DNA of 64,000 nt from Callorhinchus milii (lineage: Eukaryota), in NCBI RefSeq assembly GCF_018977255.1, contig NW_024704742.1, positions 130,946,001-131,010,000 on the forward strand, read 5' to 3'. Position 1 is the first letter of the stretch. Each line of letters opens with the position of its first letter. Made by a program: the position numbers and the translations under genes. This document shows, one piece after another, positions 6,762 through 23,079 of the stretch. The notes beneath the pieces were generated by a model. That model worked only from the letters and a program-made list of their open reading frames with translations. It did not search any database and was not told the origin of the DNA.

Positions 6762-8229
6762 TGGACTACGGGATCGAGTTCCAGGGAGTGGGGGCAGATA
6801 TGCTGATAGGCCGACCACTGATAGTGGGTGGGACGAGGGAAATTAAACAGGCTGGTGCCCACTGAGCAGAGGGAGAGACCTGCTTGGTTAGAGTTTGAGG
6901 AGATTGCAGAGATAGGGTGAGGCAAGACAATGGAGGGATTTAAAGGATGAGGATCTTGAATTCAATCCTCTGGGGGATGTGGAGCCAGGCGAGGATGGGA
7001 GTGAATGCAAGGCTTATTGTTTGTCACTGTATGTGGATGCATTCCTCACCGGTCTCCCCAGCTCCACTATCCCCAAACATATTCAGAACTCTGCTGCCTG
7101 TATACTCATCCCCTCTAAACTCCGTACTCCCATCACACTAGTCCTCACTAGATTCCTATCGCTTCCATCTGATTGTTTGTCTTCTGAATTCACTGCTCGC
7201 ACACCTGGACTATTTTCACTGAGTCCCTAGTACAGAAGGGACATGGAATTGGGCTCAGAAGGACAGGCAGCTCAGATGTAATTACTTTAAGCAGAGTAGC
7301 AAATACTGTATGTGGAACAGGCTACTCAGGGAGCTTGTGGAAGGTCAATTCTGGCAGTAGATTCAAGAGGGAATTACAGAAGTATCTGGCAAAGATTTGC
7401 AATCAAAGGGTACGAGAGCAGGAGCTGTGTGAGATGCTGATTTGTTTTTAAGTGATTTTTTCTTTAACTTTGCGGTCAGCTGGTTTGTAAAGATCCCTTT
7501 CCGTTCCTGAATGTACCTATGTTCCTAAACTTTTTTTTAATAATAACAATCCCCGCATGTGCCTTGGCACCTGATTGTGTAGTCAAGATGGGTTCATAGG
7601 GTTTCACTGTGAAGTGTAGCGACTGTGTGCTTTGTGCTTTGAGACGTCGAGAAGATGTGAAAAGCGCTATATCAAATGCAAGGATTATTATTATTATTAT
7701 CATTATTATGCTATGTTTTACAGACTGTATAGATCAATAACAATGAGTATTATGTCTTGAAACCCGAAACACTCTCCCTTAATTCCTCCGTCTTGCCCCT
7801 TCCTACCCCATTTCCAGCTTGCGCCAGAAGACTTTTCTTTTCGACTGTGCTTACAGTCACCCTCCCCCCCGCCCTCTGGCTCAGCGCCGTGCTCCACCAC
7901 AGTCAAGCGCTCTGGGATGCTACCCTGCATGAGTGATGCTGTATAAATACAAGTTGTTGTTGTTGTAATGAACCAAGGCAGACAGACGGGCAGATTAGAA
8001 GCTCGCTAGCTTTCTGCGGCTTATTGCAGAATACAGCAGCGCTGTGGGTTTCTATAGCCCGTCTACAGTGAGTGCAACTTCACAAGGTTGAACGGTGCTC
8101 TCCGCCAGCAGAAAGATCACAGAATCACTTTGGACGAGGACGTCTACTTCGGTACATCTTACCTCATCCTTCCTGAAAACCCATCCCTACCGTCTTCCCA
8201 ACAGGTCCAATAAGAAACCAAGCCGTGTT

Positions 8230-10792
8230 TTTTTTCATAAACTGTGCTTTATTTAGGGCTAAGCTGAAAAGCGTCATCCAGTACTTACATGAAGATTACA
8301 ATGTTTTTCTGGTAATTGAGAGTGAAGAGAGCAGTCAGTCTTAAATGACTATATCCCACTCTGGTAGTAGGCATACAGCTCTTTTCATTTTTGTTTGTCA
8401 GTAAAAAATAGAACGGAAGCCAAAATTCTGGGCGATAAATTAGAAAAACAAAAGTGGAGTTGTTTTTTGGGGCCAGGGAAAAAATGTTCAAATGAAACTT
8501 TTTTTTTCATTGTTTTATTTAAAAAAAAGTCAACGAAGCAAGGGAGAGAGAGGCCAGTCACTCCGCTGGCATTTATAAATTAAATAAGGGCGGATAACCT
8601 CCTAAAAATACATACAATAAATAAGCATAATAAATAAGTAAATAAATAAAAAAATTCAGTTCCAGATTTGACGGCGATTAACACAGTGGATTTGTTTTTT
8701 TTTATGCTCCCTCTCAACTGCTCTGTTAATTCAGTTACCAAAGATAAATCCCGTGCTTTCATTTTAAATAGTTTCCTTTTTTTTTCTCAGTCAGTTCAGT
8801 AAAATTCCTACAAAATATGCAAATTTATTTACATGAAACAGAGACAGAACCTTTTAAACATTCTCTGTTTTTGTTACACTTCCTGTAAACAGCAGAGATT
8901 CTCTCCCTCGTATTATTATTAGTATTTTTTTAAATTTCTGTTAAGTACAGTATTGATATGATGTTCATTAACCATTCCCAGGAGTCAGGGCTACTTTTGC
9001 TTCTGTTTGCTCTGTCCCTGCGGGGTTTATTATTTTGTTTGCAAAGAGTATTTTTTATCATTAACTTGAGAGAGTATTATGGATGAAATTTTGCTAAGAG
9101 TTGCTCAGAGCACATCTTGGGTGATGTTTAAAGCCAAACAAACCTTGCATCTACTCCAGGTTCGTCTGTTATAGGTGGTGGTGTTATTGTTTTTTTGCTG
9201 GAGACTCGTGTCCACGATTTTTGCTGCAATGTTTACAATAGTTTTCAGGAATTTTTTTTGTTGTGTTTTTTTTTATTTTTTTTTGCTTTGTAAATTTTTT
9301 TTAAAACTTTTTTTTATATATATAGCTGGAATGATTGCAGTCAAAGATCTGCCAGTGTAATGCATCTGATCCCAATTCAGACCGCATCAGATAGATTAGC
9401 AGTTGGCAGTATATGAACTTATGCTTGTCTAAATTCTACAAAATTACAATTCTACAGGATTTTTTTTTAGCAGTTACGCTAACCTCTATTGTGTTTTTTT
9501 TTGCATTTTATGTCTAATTTTTTTTATTATTTTTATACCGGTAATTTAAAAGTTTTTTTTAAATTCTGTACAACTATTGATTTATTTATTTTGCTTTTAT
9601 CTCGAAGGGAAGGGTATCCTCAACACAATGAACCATTTCCAAGCAATAATCCTATTTCCAAAATAGTCCTCTTTCTCTCTCTTTCTCTCTCCTTCTCTCA
9701 TCAGTAAGTAAGTTTTTGTTTGCTTCCCCCACAATTTAAGCCAATCTGAAACGCTCCCTCTTCACAAAAGTTAACAGTAAACCATATGAAAACTACTTAC
9801 TTGAATTAATGATACCAAAGTGCCTCTTGAAGTATCAAAGAGCTACAATCTTGCTTATTTGAAAGCAGTTTAAGTATTATCATCATTAATATTATTACTT
9901 TTTTTTTTACAATTCAAGATAAACTCTTCGGACTGTTATAGGAACAGCGAGAGAAGGACGGAAATCCATAATTTACATACCACTACAAGTCTGCAATAAA
10001 AAGTTTGGTCTTTTTGGTCCCTAAATACCTAAGGAATGACAGGTAAGATTCTTAGTGGCTGTTTACCATGTGCGCCCATTGCAACTGTATCCATGATAAT
10101 AACAGGCACTCCTTATTAAATCCTGTTCAAATGTTTCTGAAAGCCAACTCGTTGCTCTACAAGCTCCTGACATCTTTTGTGTTATCTCCTTTCAGCCGTT
10201 CAAAACACCATCCTTCAGCAGAAGTCATACATTTTTTTTCCGAAGAGACTCAACAGTCTAAACAATCAGAGCAGTCAAGGTTAAAAGTCTGAAGAAGTCT
10301 TCAGCTTGATTGGCGTATGCTGATATGTCCAAAGGTTTATTTTAACAGTACTTTTATTATTGTATTGTACATGGGGTCCTCTCCAGTGTCCGCCCTGCAA
10401 AGGAAAGGCAAGATAGCTCGCATCAGACAGATCCTCGTAAAGTCAGGGAAAGAGCTACACCAAGACAGGTTTAATTTACCTGTCATCCAAAGAAACAGCA
10501 CCCTGCTTTTTTTTCTCTCTCTCTCTACCTTTAATACAATACGCTCGTTACACCCTGCACAACTCACTTCTCGTGACCCTCCAGCCTTCTCAAAAGTGAG
10601 TGCTTTAATGTCTGAATTGTTGGGGTTTGAATGTGTGAGATCAGTCTCCAAAGAGAACGGTGATCGCTGCCTTTGGGGTAATGTGACCCTGACTGGCCAA
10701 GATCTACATGGGTGGAAAGGAAAGTTGTGGAGGCTGTACTTTGAATTCAGGGAGCGAGATAGTGTGCAAATGTGAATGGACCTGTAGTCTGC
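8230..10792 (-). other. CELF4: CELF4 terminal 3'-UTR exon (predicted)
   Basis: Branch-like ctcac, pyrimidine tract cttgcctttctcctc and AGs at 10794/10790/10783; ~2.5 kb with no recognisable SINE/LINE, very AU-rich; ends at AATAAA. Confidence 0.7.
8248..8253 (-). terminator. Distal polyadenylation signal AATAAA
   Basis: tttatt on plus; followed on minus by an A-run and a GU/U-rich segment (ggcttggtttcttatt); repeats resume shortly beyond. Confidence 0.65.
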
Positions 10793-10869
10793 CTCGAGGA
10801 GAAAGGCAAGTTCATTGTTGTGAGCCAATTGTAATTTGAGGGAAAATAATAGATTTAAATATTTAAAGT

Positions 10870-11030
10870 ATAATAATAATCCTTGGATTTGATATAGCGC
10901 CTTATCAGGTCTTTGAGAGTCTTAAGGCGCTTCACAGGATATACTTATATTTTGTGGGAGAAACCCAGCAGCCAATTGCGCACAGCAGTGTCCCACAAAC
11001 AGTCGTGGATTGAGTGACCAAATCATTATA
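10870..11030 (-). mobile_element. SINE family A 3' half
   Basis: Tail and core in reverse complement, just upstream of the terminal-exon acceptor. Confidence 0.8.
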
Positions 11031-12254
11031 TTTTTTTCAAAGGAACAAAATCAGCTCTATAGAAATGGCATAGCGTATTTGAGAAGGCTGGAGTATGTGA
11101 AAAGGTACATTCTAAAGTGTTAGCCAGTGACTGGCTAAGTCTTAGCTGACCACAAAAAATAGGGATACTGTCTCTTTAAGAATCTGCATTACGCATATTT
11201 TACAGACATATATAAAAAAAAGTTACAAGGCTATGATAAATATTAGAGGTAATGATTAATAATAATCAGATTTTGTTTTAAAACAAGTAAAATAATAAAA
11301 GATTTCACAGCAGTTCTGTCTACAGCTAGCAAGTCAGATTCCGCTTACAGTTATATCACAAGAAACTACCACTGTAACAGTCCACTCTAGTGGAAGTGTC
11401 ATGCGGAATACCAATCCATGCTGGCAGGTTCCCCACACTGTTGGTTAAACAAAGAGCAAACCGTACACAGCTATCCAACAATTACAACAGCAAAAAAAAC
11501 AACAACCAATTTCAAAGGACCCTTTTTCAGTTGCACAATAAAAGCACTTCTTCCTCTGCATGTTTTTACATACTACTGAAAATGAATCTGAAATTGCTGG
11601 AATTCTAAAGGCCCGTGCTGGCCATTTGTGTTTGTTCTGGTTTGGCAAGTTTGGGTCTGTGACAGCCAGCATCGGTTAATGGAGCCACTAAGATTTTCTT
11701 TATGCTTATGATCCTACGAGAGGCTTTCAAATGAAAAAGGCCCCCTACTTCAAAAAATCAACGAAAGAAAAAAAAATCACAATATTATCAGTGCAAAGAA
11801 ATCAACCACACATCTTTGATAACAGTAAACCTGTGTTTTTTATATATATATACACATATATATTTATAATTAAAAAAAAGGATTGAAAATTCAATGTTTC
11901 ATGTGACATCTAAAGAAGCGGGGAAATCAATTAAAAAACAAAAAACAGCTGACAGGACTAAACAGAACTCAAAACTGTAAATTAATCATTAATAATAATT
12001 AATTCTTAAAGGAACCAGTCGCAAGCCGCCAAACTAAAATGAGCACAGCAAAAAAAACAACAACAGTGTCAGCACACAGTTCAAAAGGCACATGTGAAAA
12101 TGACTGGGCAGTCATCAACCGATACAACATTCACGAATAATGCTTCACGCCACCTCCACGAAACTTGACGGCATTGTCATGCAACCATCGTAGAGCTTGT
12201 TACATGACGCCATCAGATCACACTTTTAACTTCTAGTTGACGGAACTTACTCAC

Positions 12255-12719
12255 TGGACTGTTTTCTCCATGTCATTGTTATGGGTACTTTTCCTGCAGC
12301 CTGAGACTGCGGATTATGACTGTCTCTGCTTGGGTTTTGTTTTTTTTTTGATCGAAATGACAAAAGAAGAAAAGAGTTTTTCGTTTGCGCAGTGGGGAAA
12401 GGCAACCGAACACAGCATCAGTCAAAAAAAAGCAATACTCGCAATTGAAAACAAGGAAACCAACTTAAGGAGATGGATGAGGCCTTGCAAAGAGACATGA
12501 GAGTTAATGGCACACACACGGTGAACAGTGAACGGGTAATGTTATGTAGGCAACGGATACTAAAAGAAATTGTGATTAAATGGATGGCGGCAGACAGACA
12601 TTGGTTACAGTTCATCGACATTTTTCATTTCTCCCCCGTTTACAACAGATTCACACATAGGCTTGGCTAATGCGTCACTTTAACAAGTGAAAGAGACAGT
12701 AATTCTGCGTTGGGTACAT
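12255..12719 (-). other. Candidate alternative non-coding (3'-UTR) exon of CELF4
   Basis: Acceptor ctaatgttacttttctgacag|; overlapping donors CCA|gtgagt and TGA|gtaagt at 12254/12250; repeat-free. Confidence 0.5.
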
Positions 12720-15700
12720 CTGTCAGAAAAGTAACATTAGCAGAGACGCAGGAAATCAAGAACAAGAGGAGGCTGTTCATTTCCACCGAGCCTGTTCTAC
12801 TAGTTTATTAGATCTCGGCAGATCTTTTAATTCCAATGCCACACTCTTCCACCAGTACCCCATTTGTAGCAAGTAACAACTGAAAGAGAATATTTCCAAC
12901 CCTTTCTCCACTCCCTGAGACAGATCTTTCTTCCATGGGATTGGAATTAATGATAATAAGTCCTTGCGATTGATGTAGCGGCGTTGGAGGGGTTTGGCAT
13001 TGGGGGGCTATAAGATCATCACCATGATAATTTCTCCATCATAGAGGAACTGGCTCCAGGTACAAGCAGAGTCAGAGCTATGCCCTCCGCTTTCCTCTTG
13101 GCACTTTAGCTTCCTTCCCAGTGTTATCTGAATGACCAGTCCGTTGGTCTGTGATTCACTGGGATTATTGAGAGATGTTCAGTTGAAAAGGCTCATAGAT
13201 GACATTAAGAGTGACAATGTCTTTTTTTTCTCTATCTCCCTCTGTGTTCAGCCTCTCTGCAACTCGAATGCCTCACCAACCAGATCGACTCAGTACAAGG
13301 TTACAGATAAATAACCTGTAACCTGCTTCATGTCAATCTTTTAACCATAGGTGCCGATAAATTGGTCTTGTTTCGGGAGTTGTGAATCAAATCCCGATTC
13401 CACCGTCCACCCACCCTCGCTCAGTGAGGTTACAGAACAAATTGGGTCCTACCAAATGGTTTCATTTGCAAATGTTACAAACTAATGCTTATTTTCCAAA
13501 TGTGTTTCCAATGCAAAAATGTGAGATAATATTAAGTAGTGAAGTGAAATCTCCCAGAGAATCAGCTATGAAAAGGGATTTAGAATATCTGAGCATTGGC
13601 AGCCCAAGTATTCCTGGGAGGCAACATATTCTTATTGCTAAGAATAGCCATCTTATCCCATTGTAAATATCCTTCAAGTCCCACCTCAAGACCCTCCTCT
13701 TCGACCATGCCATCGGCCACACCCCTCCCCTCCCTTCTCCCCCCCTGACCCCAGCTCAGGTCTGAAATGCTGTATACTGGCCAGCGCCTTGGGACGTCCT
13801 CCCGACGTGAAAGGCGCTATACTAATGTAATCTTGTTGTTGTTGTAAAGAAGTAGGGAGAATATTCCCTATATTTAGTGATCAATGTGACATGAACACCA
13901 TGTTCCCCATACCCAATGATCCATTACAAAATAGAAACCTTAGTGCCTTAGTGCCCTAATGCTCACTTATTGATTCCAGTCTGTGATGCTCAACACCATA
14001 CAGTCCTGAGGCCTAAAATTCCATCTGCTCTTGGCCTGAAGACCATTGCCTTTAGGTTTAAGATTGCACAGAATTTTGGAAAATTCTTAAATTCAGTCTC
14101 AATTTGGAAAACGTTTTTCCTCAGGTCTTTCTGAGAACTGGAGAAAATCAGTTTCCAAATTAAGACCAGAGCTCAGAATTTTCCACAAATTTGCACCATG
14201 TTACATATTTTGTAACAGTTGTTAACCGGTTGTTGGATCGCGTAAAACCTCCCCAAAAAAATTGCTCACTCAATCCACGACTGTTTATGGATCACTGTTT
14301 TGTGCGATTGGCTGCTGCGTCCCACTGACAAATACATAGTTAAGATCCAAGGTGAGAGTTGGTTTCTTGTGCAGAGATGTGGGTGATTGCATAATATGGA
14401 TTGTACCAGTTGGAAAATCTTAGGGCAAATGTGTGAGTAAAGTAACAAACATTAAGAACAACTGCATGCTTTATGTACTGTGTATTGCATAACCTGCAAT
14501 ATCTCAACATTGAGTGAAGATGTTGAACTTAAAAGAAACTAACGGTCAGAATAAGGTGTGCAAACACACAGGACAAGCAAGAATCCACCAACCACTAGTG
14601 GGGAAATCACAGTTACAGAACTCTGTCTGAATATTTCTCCCAAATCCTTACTTCCCCGCTCTCACTAAAAGCTCATCTGTTTAAATCCTCTCTCCCGCTG
14701 TGTTTTACTCCGAGAGACTATGCTAAAAATAATCAGAAAAACAAGAATGACCACCTTGGGTATTGACAAACCTCTCATTTGTAAAGGATCCAGACAGCTA
14801 TTATCCATTGCACCGTTAGTGCTGTGACTTAGACAGAGTAAAATTGGTGTTCAATGCGGGCACTTTGAAAACAGGAACAGCCCTCTGGGGGACTCTTACT
14901 GCAAACTCATTGAAAGTTCAGGAAAGCAGGTTTCTTTTAAGTAGACAGCGTCCCTTTATGACTGACCTCAAAAATGGAATGAGCCCAGCAATTCCGCCTG
15001 GCTGGTTTGCATGGGCTCTTGAGCCCTAACACAATGAAAAGGATCCACTAGAGAGAGAGAGAGAGAGAGGAGGGGGGGAAGAGGGAGAGAACTCTGCAAT
15101 TTCTCTCAGAAATAGAGCAAGCATTTTTCACAAGATGTTCAAAAGATCTGTGTCGCACCGTGCCTTTTTGAGAGCTGAGCATAAAGAAGAGAGATGCGCC
15201 TTGTTTCTTCAGCATCGCTAACCTCTGGAAGGGAAATGTAACCTTGAGTGTTTCAATGATTACATCGGAGTCCACTGTGCATTGATTTCCAGCCGGGTTA
15301 CATATAATAATATTAATAATAATAGCTCTTACGTTTGATATAGCGCCTACATTTAGGACATCTCTAGGCGCTTCACAGAATATACTGTAAGGTAAATCGA
15401 CTGTATATTTTGTGGGCGTAACGCGGCAGCCAATTGCATGCAGCAGTGTTCCACAAACAGTCGTGGATTGAGTGACCAAAATATTTTCTTTAGACATAGT
15501 CTAAGATCACACTCCAATGCAGTGCTGGGGGGACTACTGCAATGTTGGAGGCAAAGTACTTTTGATTATGGGAAGGTGCACCCTCTCTTATTCTGTATTA
15601 AGCACCCCCCCACCCTCTTTCATTGCATGCTGCCCTGTTTAAACCCTCCCCCACCCCACTGTTGTAACCACTTTGTTCAAGTCCTGGAACTGTTATGATG

Positions 15701-16149
15701 GAACAGGGCAAATTTTCCGTCTTTTAATCACACACTTGATTGTACACTGAACGTGATAAAGATAGAAGGAGCCTTATTGAAATCAAAGTGGCAAGCAACC
15801 TTTAATCAGTGTCTTTCAATGCACTTGTTATTCTATTTTAAGTTCTCTTGCACAATTGAACTCAGTCACTCTTTCTCTGAGCCTTTTCCTATCGATACCA
15901 TATACTGCATCAATCACTGCATGAGCAAAACTATTCCAAATCGTTAACAAGTCCCCATCCTCTAGGCAGAATAACTGCAGATTACAAACAAATTGGAGCT
16001 GAGGTACAGATCAACCATGATCTCATAGAATGGTGGAACAGGCTCGAGGGGCTGAATAGCCTACTCCTGTATTTATGTTTCTATGTTCCTATGTGCAAGA
16101 GATCTCTGTTTCTCCGGGACAGTCAGTTTAGTTAAATTTAGCTCAGGCC

Positions 16150-17143
16150 CATAACATAAGACCATAAAATGTAGGAGCAGGAGTAGCCCATTCTGCCCCT
16201 TGAGCCTGCCCACCATTTAATAAGATCATGGCTGATCTTCTAACCTAATTCCATTTACCCGCCCTATCCCCATATCCCTTAATCCCTCTATCCTTTAGAA
16301 ATCTATCAACCTCAGTCTTGAATATGTTCAAAGACTGAGCATCCACTCCTTTTGGAGTAGAGAATTCCACCAATTCACTACCCTTTGAGTGAAGAAATGT
16401 TTCCTCAACTCAGTTCGAAAGGGCTGACCCTTAATCTTAAGACTATGACCCCTAGTTTTAGATTCTCCAAACAGGGGAAACATTCTCACGGCATCTACCC
16501 TGTCCAGACCATTAAGGATCTTATAGGTTTCTATAAGATCATCTTTAATTCTTCTGTATTCTAGAGAATATAGGCCTAGTTTACTCAACCTATCCTCATA
16601 GGTCAACCTCCTCATCCCAGGAACCAACCTAGTGAATCTACACTGCATCTCCTCTAAGGCGAGTATGTCCTTTCTTAAATAAGGAGATCAAAACTGCATA
16701 CAATATTCTAGGTACGGTCTTACCAAGGCCTTATACAACTGCAGCAAGACTTCCCTACTCTTGTACTCCAACCCTTTTGCGACAAATTCCAACATAGCAT
16801 TAGCCTTCCTAGTTGCTTGCTGTACCTGCATACTACCTTTTTGTGAATTTTGTGACTGGTGTACAAGGACACCTAAATCCATCTGAACACTAACACTACC
16901 TAGTCTTTCCCCTTCTAGAAAATAATCCGCTTTTCTATTTTTACTACCTAGATGAATAACTTCACACTTCCCCACATTATAATCCATCTGCCACCTTCTT
17001 GTCCACTCACCTAGCCTGTCTATTTCCCTTTGCATTCTTTGTGTGTCATCCTCACAGCTTGCTCTCCCACCTATCTTCATATTGTCTGCGAATTTAGATA
17101 TGTTAAGTTCTATTTTCTTATCTGAATCATTGATATGGAACAT
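16150..17143 (-). mobile_element. CR1 LINE, 5'-truncated, decayed reverse transcriptase plus 3' UTR
   Basis: ORFs 16688..17143 (SKFADN, LYKALVRPYLEYC) and 16328..16648 (TRGHSLK, FFTQRVVNWWNSL); CR1-type 3' end. Confidence 0.93.
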
Positions 17144-18664
17144 GTTACGAGTTCCCTTATTTCTGTAACGTTAATTCTCAACCACAAAACGAAAAACAAC
17201 CGAAGAAACAATTTTAATTAAAACTTTTTAAAAAAACAAAAACATTTTATATCTCCCTACCCAATCATCCCTTTTACCATCTCCGTCTCACAGGAACATT
17301 GAAACACAATCTACCCTAATTAATTGCAACCAAACTAATAGCCTTATTCCCTTTATTAGAGATTTTCCAAGATTCTGAACGCTCTTATATTTTAAGATAA
17401 CGGCCCTAGGCTTAAGAACATGAGTACTCTAAACGCCTTGCAGGTGTTAGTTCACAGTGAACTTTCCTGCCTGGCTCACCAAGGAACCAATTTGCAAATG
17501 GCAATGACTCACAAACAGCCATGAAGTTGTTGGCCAGGACAAAGAGAGAACCCCCTTTTCTTTTCGAATAGGCAGAACGGACCTGGGCTTTTTAATAATT
17601 CTTTTGGAGGCAAGGGAGTAAATGAGCAATTGAGCTGAGAGAAATTGGTGTCGACCATCACCTGTAAATAGATCATTGCGATTTGCATTCAATCCATCAA
17701 ATTTTTCCTGATCATTAGAAACCCTCATCTGTTCATTTCCTTCCTGGCTCCACTCGCTGTGCTGCTGACTTGCTGTATTACCGTACGCTTCAAGTTAATG
17801 AGAGCCATTTGTAAAACTAACACCCAACTCCTGTTCCTCTGTATCTCTGACAGATGTGCTCTTTAATGCGACTCATTCAGCAAAATCACATTACGCCCAT
17901 GGAAACAGACCTCACATCAAGCACAGGTGCATTTAGCGACGGGGAGTCTGAACACAACAATATATGTTTGCCACCGATTTAACAGAATAATTTAATGCTC
18001 AAGTCGAAATCAGAATAGTTCAGGTTTATTGGATTCCATTATTCGGAGGCATCTGAAAGATTCAATCTCAATGCCCAGAAGGACATGCATTTATTTGGCA
18101 TCGTCCCAGCTTTGTAATGTGGGGGCAATAATTCTGATTGACAATGTATGATAATAGAAAGTACACAAGAAAAAATTACCTTGCCTCCTCTCGTTCTGTT
18201 TAATTACAGAAGAGCAGCTGTACCAATGTACACAAATGACTTTCCTCCCTCCCCCAGAGATAAGATCCAAACTTTGGTGTTGCTGGGTGGGGGTATGTGA
18301 TTACTGACTGTGAAGAGGTGTGAATTGGAAGCTTTGATGTTCTAACTATATGCACTTTATTCAGCTTCAGGCAATCCTCAATTAAAAATTAGATAATAAT
18401 CCCTCCAAAAAACAAAAAAAATAATAAATTGGTCATTTTCAATCCACGACTGTTTGTGGAACACTGCTGTGCGCAATTGGCTGCCATGTTTCACCCACAA
18501 ATATACAGTCAATTCACTTTACAGCATATTCTGTGAAGCACTTTGAGATGTCTAGAAGACGTGAAAAGCGCTATATCAAATGCGAGAATTATTATTATTA
18601 TTAAGATCAACACAAATTTGTATTGACCGATTTGGTTTAACCTGTATCGCAGATAATTCCGGGG

Positions 18665-18930
18665 CGTAAAAGAACCAGAGGGGAGACAAGGAGAATTTTT
18701 TTTACACAGAGAGTTGTTATGATCTGGAACGTATTGCCTGAAAGGGTGTTGGAAGCAGATTTGATAGTAGCTTTCAAAGAGGAATTGGATAGGTATTTGA
18801 ACAGGAAAAAATTGCAGGGCTATGGGGTAAGAGCAGGGAATGGGACGAGTTGGATAGCTCTTTCAAAGAGTCGGCACAGGCATGATGAGCCGAATGGCCT
18901 CCTTCTGTAAGTCTGTAATTCTATGATTCT
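18665..18930 (+). mobile_element. CR1 LINE 3' end
   Basis: IWNVLPERVLEAD...FKEELD; ends gaatggcctccttctg...(ttctatga). Confidence 0.85.
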
Positions 18931-19944
18931 AATTGCTGTTGTTCTCAACAGCTCCTCTGATCATTCTTTCTACAGTGCCTGGATGTTATTACTGCCTCAC
19001 TCTAAAGACTCTCTCATAAACCAGAGAATCCAAAAACATTAAAGTTCCGAACTTTCTTGTCACTTCAGTTTCATGTCAAGAGGCACTCGGGGTTATACCG
19101 CTCTGTCTGGAACTAGATAAATTGTTGACAATTGTAGTATTAAGGATTATGGGGAAAGAACAGGGGACTAGGATTAGATTAGAATATACAATCAATTCAC
19201 TTTACAGTATATTCTGTGAAACACTTTGAGACGTCTCTAAGATGTGATAAGCTGTCATATCAATTGCAAGGATTACATTCCACAGACCCACATATCAAAT
19301 GCAAGGAGTATTATTATTATAGAGTAGATCGCTCCAATGAGAGTTAGGTGAGGTGGGTGTGGGGGGGGGGGGGGGGGAGTTAGCAACAGCTGACAGAAAG
19401 GGCTGCACTTTGCGGTAGGTCCTGTGAAGCGCTTTGAGATGTCCTCCCTCCCTGAAAGGTGCTATGTCAAATGTAACGATTATTATGGACTTAATAGGTC
19501 CTTCTATTGTGCAGACATGTTAAGATTTTCAGTCTCGAGCCAAATCGTTGCTTATTCAATGGGATTTGTCTCACTCAATGGGATGCATTTCCATCAAAAG
19601 CAACCGGGAGCTCACGCTAGTTGGTATGACTTCTGGTATGACCGGTAATGATTTTTTTTCAATGTCATCTGGCTCATACAGGAGTTATTCTTCCATTAGG
19701 AATTCAAGCAGTTCCCAATACTTCTCATGCCACATGAGTGATTATTTCCCCGTCCTGTTTATGCAGCAGTACACTGTGGCAATCTCGTACTGCTTCTGGT
19801 TGGGAGTGGGGGGAATTCAAGTGTGGCTTCACTTTGGCGCACCGCTAACAACAACAAGAAATTACGTTTGTACAGCGCCGTTCACATCAGGAGGACGTCC
19901 CAAGGCGCTGAACAGTCAGGGATTTGGATCCGAGCCTGGGATTG

Positions 19945-20587
19945 GGTTCCCAGGCTCCATCGCATCGCCCGTCTCCGCCAATACCTTTCCCCAAAAGCCG
20001 CTGAAACTCTGGTCCATGCCTTTGTCACCTCTTGGCTACTCCAACGCCCTCCTCGCCGGTCTCCCATCCACTACCATCCATAAAATCCAACTCATTCAGA
20101 AGTCTGCCGCCCGCATTCTCACCCGCACGAAACCCCGCTCCCCGATCACCCCAGTCCTTGCCAGACTGCACTGGCTGCCTGTCCCAGAGAGGATCGACTT
20201 CAAGATCCTCACCCTCGTATTCAAGTCCCTGGACTCCTCTGTACCCCCCTACCTCTTTGACCGCCTCTCTCCTCAAAACAGTACCCGTTGCCTTCATTCC
20301 TCCAGGTCTGGCCTCCTCCTCATCCCCCAAGTCCTCCGCTCCATCCTTGGCAGTCGTGCCTTAATCCACTATGCCCCGAGGCTCTGAAACTGCCTTCCTC
20401 ACTCCCTTTGTCTCCCTCCCTCCCTTCCCATTTTCAGGTCTCTGCTGAAGACCTTTCTTTTCGACTGCGCCTTTGGTCACCTTCCTCCTCCTCCCCCTGG
20501 CTCGGTCCCGGGATCCGTTAGTGTAAAGCTCTCTGAGACGCCGTCCAGCATGGAGGGCGTTATATAAATCCAAGTTGTTGTTGTTGT
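19945..20587 (+). mobile_element. L2 LINE 3' portion
   Basis: YSNALLAGLP...LIQKSAARILTR...ITPVLARLHWLPVPERIDFKIL; tail ggcgttatataaatccaag(ttg)n; flanked by inverted L2 pieces (19848-19945, 20590-20860). Confidence 0.9.
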
Positions 20588-21456
20588 TCAGAGGGCAAGG
20601 AGGACAAGCAGGGTAGGGGTAGGACGGTGACCTAAGGTGCGGTCGAAAAGGAGGGTCTTGAGACAGGCCTTGAAGAAGGTAAGGGAGGGAGCGAGGCAAA
20701 GGGATTGTGGGATGGGGGCAAAGAGGCTGAATGGTGGGGCAGCTGGATGGGGACCATGGATCAGGCCGGAACCCGCTGAGCGGAGGGAGGGGACAGGTTT
20801 ATATGGCATTAGCAGATTACAGAGGTAGGGAGGAGCAAGGCTGGGGAGGGCATTGAAGGTGAAAATTTCAGGCTAAATGCTGTTACTGTAATGATCACAG
20901 CCCTAAAGGAATTCACCTTTGTTGCTGTACTATCTGCTTCTTTTAAACGTATTTTTTAAAGTTCGGCTGCACAAAACAGTCGGTGTCACACCCACTTCTT
21001 GAAAATCTTGACTCACGTCCTAAAGAAGCAGTGACTACAGAACGTTCTGAGGGGTAGCGAGACCCTTAGAGTGGGTGTTAACAATAATAATCCTTGCATT
21101 CGATATAGCGCGTTATCATGTCTTCGAGACGTCTCAAAGCGCTTCACAGAATATACTGCAAATATATTGACTGTATATTTCATGGGAGATGTGGTGAGTT
21201 CCAACAGAGCTCATTGTTCCATTGCCACCACAGGTATAACTTGTGATATTCAAAACTTACAGTAGCTGCAATTTGGACGGGAAATGCTATTTTTAATCAT
21301 TTAGTTTGTAATAATTGCAAAATGATTTATTACAATTTCCAAAAGCTGCCAAAGCAACTTGCTGTGATTATCTCAAATTGGACCCCAATCACAATTCAAT
21401 TAGTAAACTCCTGAAATAATGAAACTCCTGATATGATGAAATTTATATTACAAAAA

Positions 21457-21775
21457 TAATAATAATCCTTATATTTAATGTAGCACCTTTCACGTTGGGA
21501 AGGTGCCTTAAAGTATTTCACGGGGCTTAATGTGGAGCATGTCTTGTAGGCAAACTCGGCAGCTAATTTATGGAAAGCAATGTCCCACAAACAGCCATGA
21601 AATGAATGACCGACCGATTTTATTTGGGAGATTGTTGACCAGGACACTGGGAGAAACTCCCTTCTCTTTTTGAACAGACGGGACCTCGGTTTAACATCTC
21701 ATTCGAAGATGGGCACCTCCATCAATGCATCACTCCCCACACTGCTCTGGAATGTCAGCTTAGACTATGTGACTC
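21457..21775 (-). mobile_element. SINE family B
   Basis: Same core and tail as the other family B copies. Confidence 0.75.
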
Positions 21776-22951
21776 ACGAAATGTGGAGCTGTTTATAGGT
21801 CTTTGATGAGGGACAAGCACGTAGCACTGGTTTTAAGGATATGCTTCAACTGCGATTTCTGCTCAGCTGATAAACGTTCCCTAAATAAGTAACAACGAGA
21901 GTTAATGGGAGGAATTGTGTTTAGGAATGTCACACGTTTACATGCATTGGTTTCTGTACAAGCTGTTATCAGCTGTGTAGCCGCTCAGTCAGCTATAGGA
22001 AGCTGATTGCCGGGGCTTTGCTTAATAGCTTTGGAGTAAGTACTGCTCTGTTAATAACAGCTGATCTATTGAACTGGACTGCAAGAGGAATGGCAGGAAT
22101 AATAGAGTCCATGTAGTCATTAACCTCGCTAACTACCGAGTTATATTGTCCAACACATCAGTTCCTGCAAATGCCCCTGGTATAATGATACAGAACAACT
22201 AATAAGAAAGAAATCATTTACGTAAGATCCAGGACCAGAAATGGGTCATTAATTGTTCAGTTACAGCTCTTAACCAACCCCGGCCAAAACACACACCAAA
22301 TATCCGCTGTCTGACCCAATCACAAGTGCTTTATGCATGAGCTTAACATCCAAATTTGCCCGCCCCCGCCCCCCTCTTATGAATTCGCACATCGTGAGCA
22401 ACATTTCAGACTATTAACAATTCTGGGTTGTGAGGCCTTGGGATGGAAATACACAAGGGAAAGCTGGTATTGTGGACACCCTGGAGGAAATGATTTCTTC
22501 CATTCATCAAATGGTCCAATTAAGGAACGCTCTGTGGATTTCAACATAATAGGACCACTAACACCTGAGAAAACATCCCCAGGGAATGAATTTACATCCA
22601 CAAGTCCTGACTGTAGCTGAATACGTTATCTATAGGTTCCTTTGGCTCTCAGCCTGTTGACTAGCAAAAGGAACCAATAGCGACCAGCTTGACCCGCATT
22701 AACAGCAGTCTCTTGCTTTGGTTAAGCGAAGACTGCGGGAGATTTTAGCTTTCCAATCGAATCTTGAGTAAAGTCAGCATGGAATTGGATCCGTTTCACA
22801 CAAATGACAGGCACTGGGGGTTAAAAATGCAAACGGTATTTTGCTAAAACAGGCACGACTGCAGCATAGACGTGATACAATAATAAAACACCATCGGTAA
22901 GGCTGAAAATTACCTGTAATAGCTCTCAGGTCTCAGTTCGGTTTCAGCGGT

Positions 22952-23079
22952 TCAGTAAGGGCGGTTGGCATCCTTTGGCCTCTTGAGTTGTACTTTCAGC
23001 CTCTTCATGCCGATCTGAAAGCCATTCATTGCCTGGATGGCAGCCTGGGCACTGGCAGGATTGTCAAAACTCACAAAAC
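22952..23079 (-). CDS. CELF4: CELF4 last coding exon: [42 protein letters not shown]
   Basis: 128 nt including TGA (22954-22952); completes RNP1 KCFGFVSF; acceptor ttttcggcag; the exon continues 38 nt into the UTR to donor ACAG|gtaatt at 22914. Confidence 0.97.

Follow-up and report, generated by a model that had tools for sequence, protein, structure and literature searches.

A candidate 3'UTR cassette exon in Callorhinchus milii CELF4 and its counterpart in CELF6

Results

The 3' end of CELF4

The window analysed here is a stretch of 64,000 nucleotides of Callorhinchus milii DNA (contig NW_024704742.1, positions 130,946,001 to 131,010,000), which carries CELF4 on its minus strand. The assignment is based on tblastn, in which the divergent-domain exons are 98-100% identical to shark CELF4, but only 67-69% identical to CELF6. 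The reverse test identified the gene on C22 as CELF6. No more than four CELF genes were found in the genome, and further paralogs may thus have been missed. A match on C26 was discarded, because it lies at a simple repeat position without a CELF exon nearby. Metagenome scans for vertebrate orthologs gave no matches. The following features are relevant here:

22914..23079, minus strand: last coding exon of CELF4, encoding the end of RRM3, with stop codon TGA 22954-22952 and 38 nt of UTR
22908..22913, minus strand: stop-proximal 3'UTR donor CAG-GTAATT; last exonic base 22914, 38 nt past the stop
12720..12740, minus strand: candidate distal acceptor, with branch-like CTAAT (12740-12736) and ttttctgacag; rank 19 of 855
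12251..12719, minus strand: candidate non-coding cassette exon of 465 or 469 nt, its body alignable to CELF6 only in short motifs
12329..12373, minus strand: 13-mer TTTTCTTCTTTTG (12373-12361), common to CELF6, and candidate proximal acceptor
12244..12254, minus strand: stacked candidate donors CCA-GTGAGT (12254) and TGA-GTAAGT (12250)
12166..12215, minus strand: predicted hairpin conserved with CELF6
11751..12250, minus strand: U/UG-rich tract after the donor, with TATAAA variants at 11868 and 11844; the CELF6 counterpart is also U/UG-rich
10845..11037, no strand assigned: SINE-like interspersed repeat, between the conserved element and the terminal exon
8248..10394, minus strand: terminal non-coding exon of CELF4, from acceptor tcttgcctttcctttgcag-G to AATAAA 8253-8248

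The donor shortly after the stop codon, described in the initial annotation of the locus, is present: the exon ends at 22914 and GTAATT follows. In three CELF paralogs, matching donors follow the stop at distances of 21, 36 and 45 nt. The terminal acceptor had been placed near 10790, which is wrong. The site there, a GAG at 10792, ranks 9th, whereas the acceptor with first exon base 10394 is the best in the last intron (rank 1 of 855 AGs; splice-site scores throughout come from a rounded matrix). With 10394 the UTR is 2185 nt long, as opposed to 2583 nt with 10792; the principal CELF4 UTR is annotated at 2195 nt in human and 2136 nt in mouse. A repeat origin of the acceptor near 10790 was considered and is unsupported, as the sole match is the site itself. 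The context of the AATAAA, AAATAAAGCACAGT, is common to CELF4 and CELF6.

A candidate exon within the last intron

Inside the 3'UTR intron, the exon-like block of 465 nt has the acceptor (12719) and donors (12254 and 12250) attributed to it. The sites are plausible and of middling strength; neither donor has G at -1, and among 719 GTs the two rank 20th and 43rd. The CELF4 last intron contains five acceptor/GTRAGT pairs of comparable strength, and the exon anatomy by itself is within chance level. It is the conservation in CELF6 that raises the block above chance. A second candidate acceptor, with first exon base 12328, has a weak matrix score and an AG-free zone of 107 nt (rank 2 of 856); its use would shorten the exon to 74-78 nt in CELF4 and 96-100 nt in CELF6. 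An alternative coding C-terminus via 12719 was rejected, as it would be a 17-residue stub and is seen in none of 119 retrieved proteins that carry the exon-11 end. Of 12 sequencing runs listed for 8200-12850, 6 contain part of it; none is labelled as RNA, and the two presumed to be RNA, which contain 0.69 and 0.47 of the words, were left out of the evidence.

The sequence downstream of the donor is U/UG-rich and repeat-free, as annotated before. Of the 500 nt after the donor, 43% are U, which places them in the top 0.2% among 635 windows; they also contain 17 UGUK motifs (top 1.3%). Only one repeat-free stretch in the window is longer than 11046-13669. There is no AATAAA between 12809 and 10358, again in line with the earlier description. 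Both miRNA seed matches reported for this region exist, for miR-124 at 12091-12085 and for miR-181 at 12133-12127 (both 7mers), with 0.13 and 0.25 matches expected by composition. Neither is found in the CELF6 counterpart, and we reject them as not conserved.

The counterpart in CELF6

The last intron of CELF6 in the same genome contains GTAAGTT, followed by a hairpin of about 50 nt with UGCAUG and by a U/UG tract. The GTAAGTT is identical in CELF4 and CELF6 at all seven positions, while its flanks agree at 5 of 13 and 15 of 28; positions within 5 nt of a GTRAGT make up 0.95% of the CELF6 intron. In CELF6, the distance from the donor to a strong upstream acceptor (rank 3 of 696) is 460 nt, compared to 465 or 469 nt in CELF4. 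An acceptor at this distance would be expected by chance in 0.4-4% of cases, depending on threshold and tolerance. On the sense strand only, the CELF6 last intron can be aligned with the tile 12300-12151, at a score of 190; 12 shuffles reached at most 120, and 45 unrelated stretches of real sequence, of 10 kb each, at most 132. Hairpin arms and donor together are about 83% identical between the two genes, whereas the rest of the intron is unalignable, including the exon bodies and acceptor regions. The donor and its downstream flank are kept in the paralog, and the acceptor in position only. This cross-gene comparison involves two sequences, CELF4 and CELF6.

The element is not a repeat, since a 20-nt degenerate pattern for the hairpin arms matches exactly only in CELF4 and CELF6. 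At up to two mismatches, these are 2 of 23 matches, compared to 24 for a control pattern. Among the imperfect matches (one on C15 with one mismatch and nine with two; 10 of 21 were checked), none has similar flanks, with scores of 74-105 against 206. A second pattern gave 7 matches, 5 of them outside CELF4 and CELF6; its control gave 17. In other DNA, 488 kb in total, there are seven instances of GTRAGT with UGCAUG 45-85 nt further on. No counterpart of the element was found downstream of the C21 paralog (39 kb) or the C5 paralog (29 kb).

The hairpin and its UGCAUG

The arms of the hairpin are identical to those of CELF6 at 15 of 18 and 16 of 20 positions, and the loop at 3 of 13. In the predicted fold, UGCAUG (12183-12178) is fully paired in the 3' arm; it lies 67 nt past the donor in CELF4 and 65 nt in CELF6. 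In both introns, the hairpin is among the top 0.3% of windows, and the sense strand folds better than the antisense strand (-23.1 versus -13.7 and -20.5 versus -15.1 kcal/mol). The CELF6 hairpin alone has a z score of -1.8, and neither fold reaches significance once the flanks are included (z -1.3 and +0.4). Across the two sequences, 33 of 34 cells pair; none of the 17 pairs shows a compensatory change, two have one-sided changes and one is broken. Rfam gave nothing above the gathering threshold for 7500-22950, and none of the four sub-threshold matches lies at 12215-12166.

The best-conserved motif of the region is UGCAUG, the RBFOX motif, which the earlier description does not mention.

Discussion

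We estimate at about one half the probability that CELF4 contains a conserved optional 3'UTR cassette exon that is coupled to NMD and probably controlled by RBFOX and CELF proteins. Judging from the sequence comparison, the exon is likely to be old and to have been kept by CELF6 as well. We infer its splicing, its regulation and the identity of the regulating proteins. By default, 22914 would be joined to 10394, with the last junction 38 nt past the stop. Junctions close after a stop codon escape NMD, whereas distant ones trigger it, and the default mRNA should thus largely escape. Use of the weak donor (12250 or 12254) with acceptor 12719 or 12328 would create a junction at a distance of 503-507 or 112-116 nt from the stop, and hence would lead to EJC-dependent NMD; by computed positions, inclusion exceeds the limit of 50-55 nt and skipping does not. 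Inclusion would destroy the mRNA and leave the protein unchanged. It would probably be tuned just downstream of the donor, by RBFOX at the hairpin-hidden UGCAUG and by CELF on the UG-rich tract. RBFOX activates exons from downstream sites; published RNA maps suggest that CELF may act against such exons rather than in their favour. The stability of the skipped form is not guaranteed, since junctions 36-50 nt after the stop can be partly NMD-sensitive (PMC7310861).

The central proposal of the initial annotation, a 3'UTR splicing switch coupling CELF4 to NMD, gains real support from CELF6, which has the donor, the hairpin downstream of it and the U/UG tract in common with CELF4, and an acceptor 460 nt upstream; its terminal acceptor has to be moved to 10394. 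Negative autoregulation of CELF4 specifically appears doubtful. It is less probable still that the arrangement is a structure-gated NMD switch that CELF4 and CELF6 have kept since the early vertebrate duplications. In that case an RBFOX site would stay concealed in a hairpin located 35 nt past a weak donor, until CELF proteins bound to the neighbouring UG tract, a helicase or editing opened the hairpin and allowed RBFOX to activate the mRNA-destroying exon.

Instead of a cassette exon, the block could be the start of an alternative last or composite exon, an unlikely reading to our mind. In this case 22914 would be joined to 12719, the donor would mostly be ignored, and cleavage near the TATAAA at 11868 or 11844 would leave a 3'UTR of about 0.9 kb that escapes NMD, with hairpin, UGCAUG and UG tract as 3'UTR elements. 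Both TATAAAs are followed by GU-rich sequence, CELF6 has ATTAAA (16247) and TATAAA (16313) at roughly similar offsets, the tract resembles a 3'UTR, and RBFOX1 and CELF4 are known to co-bind 3'UTRs. However, the TATAAAs are part of a TA-rich run, CELF4 has no AATAAA or ATTAAA from 12251 to 11040, only a single Brunol4 transcript is seen on mouse northerns, and the exact conservation of GTAAGTT would be unexplained.

It is somewhat more improbable that the conserved element acts at the DNA level, as a duplicated enhancer, with palindromic factor sites that mimic a hairpin and incidental splice-like sites. The arms contain CRE-like words (TGACGTCA in CELF6, TGGCGTCA and TGCCGTCA in CELF4) and RFX-like words, the lack of compensatory changes fits this origin, and CELF4 is located in a large regulatory domain. 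Yet on the sense strand the imperfect pairs are G-U, the two strands fold unequally well, and an enhancer would not account for the conserved donor, the acceptor spacing of 460 nt or the strand-biased U/UG tract. Slow decay of a functionless relic of the gene duplication, together with chance splice-like words, has a lower probability again. It would be compatible with the comparable pseudo-exons and with a mostly unalignable block, but not readily with hairpin arms and donor that stand out from an unalignable intron, given that the divergent-domain exons of the two genes reach only about 70-85% identity in protein. Least probable is use of acceptor 12719 with retention of the 1856-nt stretch 12250-10395: the resulting UTR of about 4.5 kb with extra miRNA sites, as suggested earlier, would include a SINE (in CELF6, 3993 nt with repeats) and seeds that are not conserved, and is at odds with the 2.1-2.2 kb annotated for the principal human and mouse UTRs and with the single northern band.

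Human annotation may offer a parallel to the cassette exon. Transcript ENST00000587911 is listed as Type 2 with a distance of 129, versus 44 in the principal CELF4 form; the row fits an extra UTR exon of about 85 nt, if Type 2 stands for several 3'UTR introns, a meaning that we infer from a sheet defining only Types 0 and 1. The four NMD-event supplementary tables that we searched contain no CELF4 rows; other lists of NMD exons could already include the exon. Human CELF4 (44), CELF5 (40), CELF6 (28) and CELF3-type genes are among the genes with a stop-proximal 3'UTR intron in PMC7310861. This class has a single proximal intron, whereas the candidate exon would shift CELF4 to the distal, NMD-prone class.

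The closest precedent is provided by hnRNP D and hnRNP DL (PMC5824352), which are likewise paralogous RNA-binding proteins with a 3'UTR cassette exon (a candidate in CELF4 and CELF6), whose inclusion leads to NMD, and which show auto- and cross-regulation; for the CELF pair, such regulation is putative. They belong to another family, and the CELF donor differs in having a hairpin downstream that hides an RBFOX motif. In CELF2, a post-stop intron is also processed according to CELF protein, but by a block of the 3' splice site (retention) and APA, and not through a poison exon (PMC6752737). The search downstream of the CELF1/2-like paralog did not detect the CELF4/CELF6 element. RBFOX2-controlled AS-NMD exons in genes for RNA-binding proteins resemble the candidate in their conserved UGCAUG up to 200 nt downstream, weak donor and UG-rich neighbourhood, as described in PMC3967051, and differ in that the CELF4/CELF6 motif is predicted to be base-paired. 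The main text of that paper, to the extent available, does not name CELF4 or CELF6 as RBFOX2 targets, and its visible mentions of "celf" concern motifs.

The mechanism class is well known, and the surprise is therefore moderate; what is unusual is the RBFOX site hidden in a hairpin. CELF4 is a neuronal regulator sensitive to dosage: mice heterozygous for it have seizures (PMC1934399), and human variants lead to a neurodevelopmental disorder (reviewed in PMC13407360). According to the same review, CELF4 binds to the 3'UTR of its own mRNA, and its autoregulation is putative and unvalidated. If the structure-gated switch were real, it would couple RBFOX and neuronal CELF levels, and in haploinsufficient patients a block of the exon could increase CELF4. 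Named splice sites in a candidate 3'UTR exon with a counterpart in CELF6 make CELF4 autoregulation directly testable, and the exon, if present in humans, would offer a possible target for antisense up-regulation.

Results

The CELF4 gene and its paralogs

Protein matches place six exons of a CELF gene, its 3' half, on the minus strand of the window.

CELF exons in the window, from protein matches
62813-62652, minus strand, CELF exon
58644-58492, minus strand, CELF exon
40208-40146, minus strand, CELF exon
~33500-33421, minus strand, CELF exon
30062-29916, minus strand, CELF exon
23079-22914, minus strand, CELF exon

Shark CELF4 proteins match the exonic parts at 91-100%; in the two long exons of the divergent domain, CELF6 proteins match no better than 67-69%. 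The closest named proteins come from cartilaginous fishes, a group that probably includes the source of this genome. The stop codon (22954-22952) is followed after 38 nt by a donor, as the initial annotation stated. Repeat masking covers about 28% of the window; SINE-like repeats are numerous, and a truncated LINE-like reverse-transcriptase remnant lies at 16100-17170 (minus strand), with many shorter copies elsewhere.

A search of the same genome with exon 11 revealed three other CELF genes, namely CELF6 (contig C22), a gene that we take to be CELF5-like (C21; last intron only ~0.8 kb) and a presumably CELF1/2-like gene (C5). All three carry a donor-like site shortly after the stop, at 21, 36 and 45 nt, in line with the human distances of 28 (CELF6) and 40 (CELF5) in PMC7310861. 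On G000:C5, this site is followed, ~2.0-3.5 kb after the stop, by a very UG-rich 1.5 kb (up to 70 UGUK per 500 nt), which may bind CELF proteins or be no more than a simple repeat. A weak RRM match (48% identity) at G000:C21:3822396-3822539, on the contig of the CELF5-like gene, is probably another RRM-protein gene.

The terminal exon

The terminal acceptor had been misplaced near 10790. The site there is a GAG (10792), ~50 nt past a SINE, that ranks 9th among the 855 AGs of the last intron, whereas the AG before 10394 ranks first (scored with an approximate vertebrate matrix of rounded values). The UTR up to the AATAAA at 8253 measures 2185 nt from 10394 and 2583 nt from 10792; the principal-transcript CELF4 UTR has 2195 nt in human and 2136 nt in mouse (PMC7310861, S3 Table). 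The poly(A) signal context is common to CELF6. Strong donor-like sites at 10479 (CAG/GTAAAT; rank 2/719 GTs, 85 nt upstream of the terminal acceptor) and 10567 (GAA/GTGAGT), both on the minus strand, could form another small UTR exon with the 10792 acceptor; CELF6 showed no counterpart.

The terminal exons of CELF4, CELF6 and the C21 paralog all contain a tandem motif, GGGACCAAA...GACCAA (10021-10004, minus strand, in CELF4), 370-490 nt past the acceptor; it is absent from the rest of the DNA examined. We read it as two putative miR-133 sites, through which expression of neuronal CELFs in muscle could be prevented.

A candidate exon in the last intron

The proposed cassette exon (12719 to 12255 or 12251, 465 or 469 nt) has its acceptor at 12719 and stacked donors at 12254 and 12250 in place. 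Also borne out were the lack of an AATAAA from 12809 to 10358 and the two 7-mers for what we presume to be the miR-124 and miR-181 seeds. The strength of the sites is not beyond chance: the acceptor ranks 19/855, the donors 20 and 43/719, and the intron holds five comparable acceptor/donor pairs. By itself, the exon-like anatomy is weak. Downstream of the donor, 500 nt are as U/UG-rich as claimed (top 0.2% for U, top 1.3% for UGUK, 635 windows), and the tract behind the CELF6 donor is rich in both as well (top 2.8% and 1.0%, 395 windows). The repeat-free stretch 11046-13669 is the second-longest in the window, behind the one with the terminal exon. Two more GCAUG motifs, 17 nt apart, lie at 11421 and 11404 (minus strand), ~840 nt beyond the candidate donor.

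An element common to CELF4 and CELF6

When 36 tiles of 150 nt (13500-8101) were each compared with every paralog, the top non-repeat match paired tile 12300-12151 with the CELF6 last intron, on the sense strand only (score 190; shuffles reached at most 120, and 45 real stretches of unrelated DNA at most 132). The two SINE tiles gave higher scores with every target, and the only other strong match lies in the terminal exon (z 9). Several tiles with weaker flags (z 3-5) were low-complexity or scored similarly on the reverse strand. Identity extends over GTAAGTT (7/7), a spacer (15/28), hairpin arms (15/18 and 16/20) and a loop (3/13). The tile scan found no such element downstream of the C21 and C5 genes, and its conservation is seen in one paralog pair. 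Genome pattern searches and flank comparison rejected the element as a repeat.

Taken as a prediction, the 465-nt length held: a CELF6 acceptor (rank 3/696) and the homologous donor delimit 460 nt, with a chance of 0.4% (score at least 10, within 5 nt) to 4% (score at least 7.5, within 10 nt). The exon bodies do not align except for one 13-mer that does not occur in 452 kb of other DNA. A long AG-free zone follows this 13-mer, as does another candidate acceptor, at 12328 in CELF4, which would give an exon of 74-78 nt there and of 96-100 nt in CELF6.

For the hairpin (12215-12166), the folding energy is -23 to -24 kcal/mol (z -3.3; CELF6, z -1.8). Among windows of equal size it belongs to the top 0.3% in both introns; the z-scores lose significance once wider flanks are added, and the opposite strand folds much worse. 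Among 17 pairs in the two sequences, 14 are invariant, two show one-sided changes to G-U, one is broken and none is compensatory. Rfam returned no family match. The RBFOX motif UGCAUG, predicted to be fully paired, lies in the 3' arm, 67 (CELF4) and 65 nt (CELF6) after the donors. A donor followed by UGCAUG occurs seven times in 488 kb of other DNA and so is not rare as such; it carries weight because it is homologous in both genes.

Discussion

A junction far past the stop triggers NMD. With skipping, the final junction would lie 38 nt past the stop, and inclusion would place one at 503-507 nt (12719) or 112-116 nt (12328) and therefore, by the distance rule, expose the mRNA to NMD. Judged from sequence, we give an NMD-coupled 3'UTR cassette a probability of about 0.5. 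RBFOX bound within ~200 nt downstream activates exons and raises NMD-inducing inclusion in RBP genes (PMC3967051), and CELF3-6 bind UGU-rich elements (PMC7780154). Immunity of the skipped CELF4 mRNA may be incomplete: among proximal 3'UTR introns, those at least 36 nt from the stop are the most UPF1-sensitive (PMC7310861), and the zebrafish celf4 intron is listed at 70 nt.

On mouse northerns, Brunol4 appears as a single transcript (PMC1934399), which fits a degraded minor form. An alternative last exon in place of the cassette is the foremost rival, though improbable, and the single band disfavours an abundant short UTR form. Somewhat less probable still, the conserved element could be an enhancer, and we rate a relic marginally lower. 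A retained long UTR is the least credible, an abundant long form being disfavoured by the same band.

No title or abstract found mentions a CELF4 or CELF6 3'UTR poison exon, in a search outside which most subscription papers fall; the accessible parts of two CELF reviews mention only CELF2 autoregulation and putative CELF4 self-binding. The supplements of four NMD catalogues, PMC11188260 (file 13 left out), PMC10123112, PMC7347940 and PMC6547761, hold no CELF4 row; PMC10123112 has one CELF6 event, in another part of that gene, and PMC7347940 has 11 CELF6-labelled rows, not placed relative to the last intron. An Ensembl-derived row for human ENST00000587911 (4 exons, distance 129, Type 2, which the sheet leaves undefined) suggests that the human annotation already includes one additional UTR exon of ~85 nt, which counts against novelty; its homology to the candidate exon is putative. 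Among the closest known systems are hnRNP D/DL and CELF2. The CELF4 exon is a probable addition to a known class, the 3'UTR AS-NMD exons of RNA-binding-protein genes. For CELF4, the outcome is a corrected terminal exon and a conserved hairpin of putative function, shared with CELF6, beside a probable AS-NMD exon.
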